This document shows positions 17,114 through 18,285 of a stretch of DNA of 64,000 nt, in pieces. A program made the translations under genes and the position numbers. The stretch is taken from the sequence record PQ666539; one strand, written 5' to 3'. Source of the stretch: Shigella phage sb1. The number at the start of each line of letters is the position of its first letter. The first letter of the stretch is position 1. The notes beneath the pieces were generated by a model. That model was not told where the DNA came from, did no database searches, and saw nothing but the letters and a program-made list of their open reading frames with translations.

Positions 17114-18285
17114 GTATGTTGCAACGCCCAGGATATCCAAATCTCAGCGTTAAATTATTTGATAGCTACGACGCTTGGAGTAATAATAGATTTGTTGAAT
17201 TAGCTGCTACTATTACCACATTAACTATGCGGGATTCTCTTTATGGCCGAAATGAAGGAATGTTGCATTTTTATGATTCTAAAAATATCCATACAAAAAT
17301 GGATGGAAATGAAATAATTCAGATTTCTGTAGCTAATGCAAACGATATTAATAATGTTAAAACACGAATTTATGGATGCAAGCATTTTTCCGTGTCAGTA
17401 GATTCAAAGGGTGATAACATCATTGCTATTGAATTGGGAACTATTCATTCTATAGAAAATCTTAAATTTGGCAGACCGTTTTTCTCTGATGCAGGTGAAT
17501 CTATAAAGGAAATGCTTGGTGTCATTTATCAGGATCGCACGTTATTAACTCCAGCAATAAATGCCATAAATGCTTATGTTCCTGATATTCCATGGACTAG
17601 CACATTTGAAAACTATTTGTCGTATGTCAGAGAAGTTGCTCTAGCTGTAGGAAGTGACAAATTTGTATTTGTGTGGCAAGACATCATGTGAGTTAACATG
17701 ATGGACTATGATATGATGATAAATCAAGAACCGTATCCAATGATTGTCGGTGAGCCATCTTTAATAGGTCAATTCATCCAAGAATTAAAATATCCATTAG
17801 CATATGATTTCGTTTGTTTGACTAAATCGAATCCTCATAAACGCGACCCAATGAAAAACGCTACTATCTATGCGCATTCATTTTTAGATTCTTCATTGCC
17901 AATGATTACTACAGGAAAGGGCGAAAACTCTATTGTAGTGTCAAGGTCAGGTGCTTATTCTGAAATGACTTATAGGAATGGATATGAAGAATCTATTCGT
18001 CTTCAAACTATGGCACAATACGATGGCTATGCTAAATGTTCTACTGTCGGTAATTTTAACTTGACTCCTGGAGTTAAAATTATTTTTAATTATAGTAAAA
18101 AACAATTTAAAAAAGAATTTTACGTTGATTAAGTTATCCATGAATTATCCAATAATAATTCAGTAACTCATCTATATATGTTCACTAATGCAACGAAACT
18201 GGAAACAATAGACCCAGTTAAGGTTAAAAATGAATTTAAATCTGATACTACCACTGAAGAAAGTAGTTCTTCCAATAAGCAATAA
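17110..18285 (+). pseudogene. 27: baseplate hub protein gp27, interrupted by TGA at 17689..17691 and TAA at 18130..18132
   Basis: one frame, 392 codons, matches recalled T4 gp27 (391 aa) with Gly and Glu replaced by stops. Confidence 0.9.

Follow-up and report, generated by a model that had tools for sequence, protein, structure and literature searches.

Two in-frame stop codons in gene 27 of Shigella phage sb1 belong to a window-wide layer of unselected G:C>T:A substitutions and very probably mark a faulty sequence record

Gene 27 contains two in-frame stop codons

The window, by which we mean the whole analysed stretch of 64,000 nucleotides from the record of Shigella phage sb1 (PQ666539), contains gene 27 with the following features.

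17110..18285, plus strand: gene 27, baseplate hub / central spike complex protein gp27; 391 codons plus stop, with two in-frame stops inside
17689..17691, plus strand: codon 194, TGA; G>T at 17689 in GGA; Gly in relatives
18130..18132, plus strand: codon 341, TAA; G>T at 18130 in GAA; Glu in relatives
17268 (Q53H), 17817 (W236C), 17992 (A295S) and 18091 (D328Y), plus strand: four further private G>T substitutions in gene 27, all missense

The translation runs from the ATG at 17110 to the terminator TAA at 18283-18285 over 391 sense positions, and reads ...VWQDIM*VNMMDYD... around the TGA and ...EFYVD*VIHELS... around the TAA. The original prediction had placed in this gene a TGA where T4 has Gly and a TAA where T4 has Glu, and had considered the frame otherwise intact, and this description is borne out by the translation and by the relatives. 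Codon 194 is GGA in relatives and GGC in T4 (Gly194), codon 341 is GAA (Glu341) in 7 out of 7 relatives, and none of the 7 relatives compared has a stop at either codon. As the DNA of the gene aligns with that of T4 and ECp13 without a gap across 1179 alignment columns, and the codons are intact in relatives, the view that both stops are lesions is supported as well. A full-length gp27 can thus not be read from an uninterrupted frame, which is broken at 17689-17691 and again at 18130-18132, and the list of open reading frames splits the gene into three parts: 17110-17691 (193 aa), 17698-18132 (144 aa) and 18178-18285 (35 aa).

The assignment to the baseplate hub gene proved equally sound at the protein level. 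When the stops are masked, gp27 contains PF09097 (Phage-tail_1) at residues 5-200 (455.9 bits) and PF09096 (Phage-tail_2) at residues 203-375 (388.6 bits), both above the gathering threshold and over the full model, and it matches T4 gp27 (PDB 1K28, chain D) from end to end, residues 1-391 against 1-391, with E=6e-258.

We regarded a substitution as private to the window when all relatives covering the site agree mutually and differ from the window, which could be scored at 53,956 sites. Six private G>T substitutions lie in gene 27, i.e. Q53H, G194*, W236C, A295S, D328Y and E341*. Three C>A-type differences in gp27, at 18072 (Gly321, synonymous), 18102 (N331K) and 18113 (T335K), are common only to the window and phage sb2; they were rejected as private because sb2 has the same changes, and they may be either natural polymorphisms of the lake lineage or recurrent errors.

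Exact searches were carried out with oligomers spanning the two codons. The 34-mer with TGA has no exact match in viral, metagenome or genome contigs, and its GGA version is present in 5 IMG/VR contigs. The 26-mer with TAA has no exact match in viral contigs, and the GAA version of the codon-341 oligomer has 3 matches in IMG/VR. Exact-protein look-ups with the gp27 fragments and four other window proteins were empty.

Genome context and relatives of the window

A megablast search against 50,697 phage records returned matches that are all Tequatrovirus (T4-like) phages of Escherichia and Shigella, with no identical record among them. The best identity over gene 27 is 98.8% (ECp13), and over 25-kb stretches the window is 96-97% identical to Ec_YwIITB1, Ec_MI-02 and the Shigella phages sb2, sb4 and pSs-1. 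Its G+C content lies 0.07-0.4 points under that of the relatives, and its end coincides with the end of the sibling records. The gene order from gene 19 to motA is that of T4, including the hub block on the plus strand, which reads 51-27-28-29-48-54 as in T4 (gp51 16361-17107, gp27 17110-18282, gp28 18305-18760, followed by gp29, gp48 and gp54).

Several differences from T4 itself need to be mentioned here. The homing-endonuclease genes segD (between 23 and 24) and segE (between inh and uvsW), present in T4, are absent from the window at 7416-7501 and 12513-12562, respectively, and nrdB (40335-41510) and td (44387-45244) are uninterrupted, without the T4 group I introns that carry I-TevIII or I-TevI; the close relatives likewise lack these genes and introns. 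Two tandem paralogues of alt (ADP-ribosyltransferase), about 41% identical mutually, lie at 22983-27095 on the minus strand, as in pSs-1 and Ec_MI-02, where T4 instead has one alt and the remnants alt.-1 and alt.-2. The hoc gene (10407-11822, minus strand) has about 80% identity to Ec_MI-02 and is far more diverged than its neighbours, with overlapping offset matches that suggest that the number of Ig-like repeats differs, as in sb2 and pSs-1, whose hoc is longer.

In-frame stops occur in many other conserved genes

Proteins of Ec_MI-02, pSs-1 and T4 were compared with the window by tblastn, and each codon was re-read. We found 28 anomalous in-frame stops in 21 conserved genes, two of them being those of gene 27, and no frameshifts, as each gene gives a single full-length tblastn match. 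The stops outside gene 27 are the following.

5097-5099 (Ser) and 5367-5369 (Glu), plus strand: two TAA in gp22 (scaffold)
6672..6674, plus strand: TAA for Leu in gp23 (major capsid protein); T>A, the sole stop in 5000-29999 that is not G:C>T:A
14130..14132, plus strand: TAA (Glu) in uvsW.1
15196..15198, minus strand: TAA (Glu) in uvsY
16664..16666, plus strand: TAA (Glu) in gp51 (hub assembly protein)
18952..18954, plus strand: TGA (Gly) in gp29 (hub / tail length protein)
20739..20741, plus strand: TAA (Tyr) in gp48 (tail tube cap)
22641..22643, minus strand: TAA (Ser) in alt.-3
24504..24506, minus strand: TAG (Glu) in the second alt paralogue
30391-30393, minus strand: TAA in 30.4
34742-34744, minus strand: TAA in cd.2
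38072-38074, minus strand: TAA in pseT.3
38251-38253 and 38437-38439, minus strand: two TAG in alc
39293-39295 and 39446-39448, minus strand: TAA and TGA, respectively, in rnlA
43452-43454 and 43455-43457, minus strand: two TAA in adjacent codons of nrdA
48265-48267, minus strand: TAA in gp32 (ssDNA-binding)
51772, 51841, 52702 and 54211 (first bases), plus strand: four TAA in gp34
55164 (first base), plus strand: TAA in gp35
56285 (first base), plus strand: TAA in gp36

Ten of these stops lie in minus-strand genes between 30391 and 48267, and six, all TAA, in the plus-strand tail-fibre genes between 51772 and 56287. By type the in-frame stops are 21 TAA, 3 TAG and 4 TGA; the residues replaced are Glu (GAA/GAG), Gly (GGA), Ser (TCA), Tyr (TAC) and, once, Leu (TTA), and a single G>T, C>A or T>A change is enough to make a stop of each of these codons. 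About 27 out of 30 nonsense changes are G:C>T:A. A further apparent case, 'Val>TGA' in 24.3, was rejected as an anomalous stop, being a natural shorter allele that is also found in YwIITB1 and OE5505.

In clean relatives (sb2, pSs-1, OE5505 and YwIITB1), the homologous regions of 25-34 kb contain 0-2 in-frame stops. Ec_YwIITB1 (PQ356294.1; L003 854-2415, L010 about 16550-17040) is not itself free of defects: the annotation gives its major capsid gene, which contains an in-frame TAA, as two CDS, and splits hoc in two as well; nrdB and frd are disrupted, and the homologue of g249 has degraded.

Gene 27 offers 42 G/C sites at which G>T or C>A yields a stop, and at the window-wide rate of 1.3% one would expect 0.55 stops there, with P(>=2) = 0.10. 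Two stops in this essential gene could hardly be put down to chance in an ordinary phage record, but within the window they are unexceptional.

A layer of G:C>T:A substitutions covers the window evenly

The 744 private substitutions include 128 C>A and 119 G>T, together 247. These two changes affect 1.3% of G/C sites, while the other classes reach 0.05-0.7%, and the share of G:C>T:A among the private changes of the relatives is 4-18%, except for sb4, where it is 22%. The layer can be described as follows.

5000..63999, both strands equally: overlay of about 250-270 private G>T / C>A substitutions, at 1.3-1.4% of G/C sites

This overlay is private to the window, and the variants that the window has in common with pSs-1, sb2 or YwIITB1 have a normal, mostly synonymous spectrum. 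The lesions of gene 27 are not a property of that gene but part of a window-wide, unselected overlay.

The overlay is evenly spread (chi-square over 2-kb bins, p=0.15), with G>T and C>A interspersed among each other at equal frequency. Neither the strand-runs test (z=0.21) nor the close pairs, in which G>T and C>A are mixed and which are of the same type in 26 out of 47 cases, point to a single-strand origin. Such pairs are slightly over-represented, with 19 within 10 bp against an expected 10.3 +/- 3. Trinucleotide context is weak (overall chi-square p=0.03); the CCG context was observed 9 times against 6.9 expected (1.3x), which does not amount to a CCG>CAG preference. Local A+T content has no effect on the overlay.

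G:C>T:A changes show no trace of purifying selection

For each substitution class, the coding effects of the private changes were compared with those of the same change placed at every eligible site. The counts are given in the order non-coding/missense/nonsense/synonymous.

G:C>T:A: observed 15/187/24/21; unselected expectation 18/187/28/13
A:T>G:C: observed 7/33/0/171; unselected expectation 16/121/0/74
G:C>A:T: observed 4/49/0/81; unselected expectation 10/98/8/18

Private A:T>T:A and A:T>C:G changes are synonymous-enriched too. This contrast between the classes means that the window is a normally evolved phage genome with one added layer that never met selection. The idea of a decaying pseudogene or genome remnant was rejected, as there are no indels or frameshifts and the transitions are strongly biased to synonymous changes.

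The sibling record of phage sb4 has the same kind of defect

The record of Shigella phage sb4 (PQ666542.1) has 52 in-frame stops in the homologous 59 kb (105956-164971), caused by substitutions only, with no frameshifts. Its annotation lists 301 features, with many genes in 2-4 pieces (rnlA, td, motA, gp27, gp28, gp48, alt, DNA ligase), and its gp27 consists of two CDS pieces with stops of its own, L109* and S351*. The overlay of sb4 is unselected as well, and is composed of G:C>T:A at 0.89% of G/C sites and A:T>T:A at 0.38% (16 nonsense).

G:C>T:A sites common to the window and sb4 number 15 against 2.4 expected (P=3e-8), namely 12 missense, 2 nonsense and 1 synonymous, with gp27 D328Y among them:

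8737, 18091, 18833, 38070, 38074, 38097, 39250, 43385, 43454, 51974, 54075, 55971, 55976, 61530, 61737: error-type sites common to the window and sb4

An inherited haplotype was considered as the reason for these 15 sites and rejected. The sequences flanking them are as divergent as the genome on average, which means that the sites arose repeatedly and independently and were not inherited as blocks. No sequence determinant was found for them. Such recurrence makes random in-silico corruption less likely and a shared technical history of the two records more likely.

Both records come from a study of four phages from a Kolkata lake (PMC11993411), in which the window's record, PQ666539, is phage ADG1 (164,945 bp, G+C 35.16%, 285 proteins). 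The other three are AKR2, or sb2 (PQ666540, G+C 35.49%, 254 proteins), CDR3, or sb3 (PQ666541, G+C 35.52%, 255 proteins), and TMC4, or sb4 (PQ666542, G+C 35.35%, 291 proteins). For sequencing, libraries were made by enzymatic fragmentation and PCR amplification and run on a NovaSeq 6000; assembly was done with SKESA, and the broken genes and inflated protein counts pass without comment (PMC11993411). The lowest G+C content together with a raised protein count in ADG1 is the pattern that a G:C>T:A load with split genes would produce, and the published protein counts of both sb4 and ADG1 are inflated by the error overlay.

The stops are most readily explained as errors of the record

We consider it very probable (about 0.9) that the TGA and TAA of gene 27 are not present in the replicating phage, and that the window represents an ordinary Tequatrovirus genome overlaid with a layer of G:C>T:A errors at about 1.3% of G:C pairs. 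The spectrum of the layer, its evenness, the lack of selection and of indels, and the recurrence of the defect in a public sibling record all belong to the observations given above; the origin of the layer in sequence determination is what we infer. Nonsense codons in capsid, scaffold, ssDNA-binding, hub, tube-cap and tail-fibre genes mean that no plaques could be formed, and a phage with this load would be unable to replicate, so that the stops have to be errors of the record. Moreover, because the same overlay puts stops into 20 other conserved genes, a technical origin is far likelier than a biological event in gene 27. The real phage most likely has GGA (Gly194) and GAA (Glu341) at the two positions.

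As to the way in which the stops came about, a G:C>T:A error landing on GGA, GAA/GAG, TCA or TAC would turn the codon into a stop, and gene 27 would have been struck twice by chance. One candidate cause is a template with damage of the 8-oxoG type combined with a PCR library of very low complexity, in which single damaged molecules might dominate a locus. On one hand, G:C>T:A is the signature of adenine put opposite damaged guanine (8-oxoG) and a documented library artefact (PMC3616734), and both the excess of C>A/G>T (247/744) and the selection-free distribution expected of that artefact are found in the window. On the other hand, the artefact described by Costello et al. in 2013 affects a small percentage of the reads, with a preference for CCG>CAG, and appears as G>T in read 1 and C>A in read 2 (PMC3616734). 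The presence of the changes in the consensus argues against a low allele fraction in the window, and this consensus-level presence, the weak context, and the sites shared with sb4 without visible determinant in different haplotypes count against an account by oxidation artefact.

An instrument or chemistry error is another candidate cause, and a data handling error might be a third. Under two-colour chemistry, G is read as T and C as A when a spurious green signal is added. The independence of the overlay from A+T content lends an instrument error no support, and speaks against a phasing-type error in A/T-rich surroundings.

Other readings of the two stops

We also considered that the substitutions might be real in the molecules that were sequenced, these being inactivated or defective particles with oxidative (8-oxoG-type) mutations acquired in vivo or in the environment and read from very few templates. 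In favour of this, the spectrum is the one classically produced by oxidised guanine, the changes reach consensus level, sb4 has some of the same sites, and the excess of close pairs (19 against 10.3 +/- 3) is what several lesions per molecule would give. A plaque-forming isolate, however, cannot bear 28 nonsense codons in 64 kb, the more so as the genes struck include the T4-essential gp22, gp23, gp27, gp29, gp32, gp34-36, gp48 and gp51. A G:C>T:A class without purifying selection has, furthermore, never passed through replication under selection, and the mixture of G>T and C>A in close pairs, of which 26 out of 47 are concordant, does not look like one-strand damage of one molecule. We thus regard real damage as very unlikely. 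Hypermutation of T-even DNA in vivo, for instance by massive guanine oxidation of virions in lake water or by a guanine-damaging host activity, with sequencing largely from inactivated particles, is more doubtful still; if it were true, the sites in common with sb4 would be true damage hot spots.

It is very unlikely that the sequence was altered after its determination, by random in-silico corruption or by an editing or handling error. Although such alteration would account for the near-uniform rate per G/C site with little dependence on context or A+T, and no identical sequence exists in any collection searched, a single substitution class is odd for random corruption and there is mild local clustering. 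The 15 sites that coincide with an independent public record (2.4 expected, P=3e-8), and the same kind of defect in that public record of sb4, are also difficult to reconcile with it.

Readthrough or recoding by a suppressor tRNA, stop reassignment or selenocysteine, giving a full-length gp27, has a negligible probability. TAG or TGA is reassigned in some phages, and the phage tRNA cluster lies outside the window, in which no tRNA was found over the 64 kb and no Rfam element either; yet all three stops occur in frame (TAA 21, TAG 3, TGA 4), five amino acids are replaced, no relative has a stop at either gp27 position, and the same codons terminate genes, as gp27 ends with TAA and gp51 with a TGA (17111-17113) overlapping the gp27 start.

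That gene 27 alone has become a pseudogene, or has been split into domain-sized genes, is just as remote: the TGA at codon 194 does lie at the domain boundary (PF09097 5-200, PF09096 203-375) and is followed by ATG ATG at codons 197-198, with an open reading frame restarting at 17698, but gp27 is an essential hub protein whose last 51 residues would be removed by the second stop, twenty other genes are similarly struck, two stops are compatible with the window-wide rate (P=0.10), and purifying selection continues to act on the other substitution classes.

Significance for sequence records

The two stops tell us nothing new about the biology of gp27; they mark a faulty sequence record. The main value of the finding lies in quality control. 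In records of this kind the number of genes is inflated, the G+C content is lowered, and essential genes fall apart into 'hypothetical proteins'; pseudogenes, recoding or new small ORFs may then be claimed where there are none. As the defect recurs in at least one public sibling record (PQ666542), our result is a quality flag for that record as well as for the window's own. The comparison of private substitutions per class with the unselected expectation is a reusable test for any phage genome with close relatives, by which an error overlay can be told from real divergence.

Comparison with known systems

Compared with T4 gp27 (1K28; PF09097 and PF09096), the gp27 of the window is collinear over 391 residues, has both domains and lies in the same neighbourhood, but the window copy is interrupted by stops at codons 194 and 341 and has in addition four private missense changes, among them W236C and D328Y. 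A nonsense codon within gene 27 is also what characterises the classical conditional-lethal gene 27 mutants of T4. These, however, carry one selected mutation each, usually an amber, in a genome that is wild type elsewhere and are maintained in suppressor hosts, whereas the window has an opal and an ochre codon in the gene and 26 more stops, of all three types, distributed over 20 further genes.

Stop-codon-recoded phages, too, have in-frame stops within essential structural genes. In such phages one reassigned codon is read as a consistent amino acid, a suppressor tRNA is present, and the reassigned codon is avoided at the ends of genes, while the window has neither a single codon type nor a consistent residue nor terminator avoidance, and has no tRNA within its 64 kb.

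The 8-oxoG artefact of Costello et al. (2013), which arises in Illumina PCR libraries, resembles the overlay in substitution class, in affecting both strands and in its non-biological distribution; it differs in that the changes of the window are in the consensus and the CCG context is enriched just 1.3x. A further counterpart comes from the same lake study. Phage sb4 is a Tequatrovirus of the same clade with a stop-ridden gp27, an unselected G:C>T:A overlay and no frameshifts, although its overlay has an A:T>T:A component that is absent in the window, its gp27 stops are at codons 109 and 351, and its natural background is about 4% apart from that of the window.
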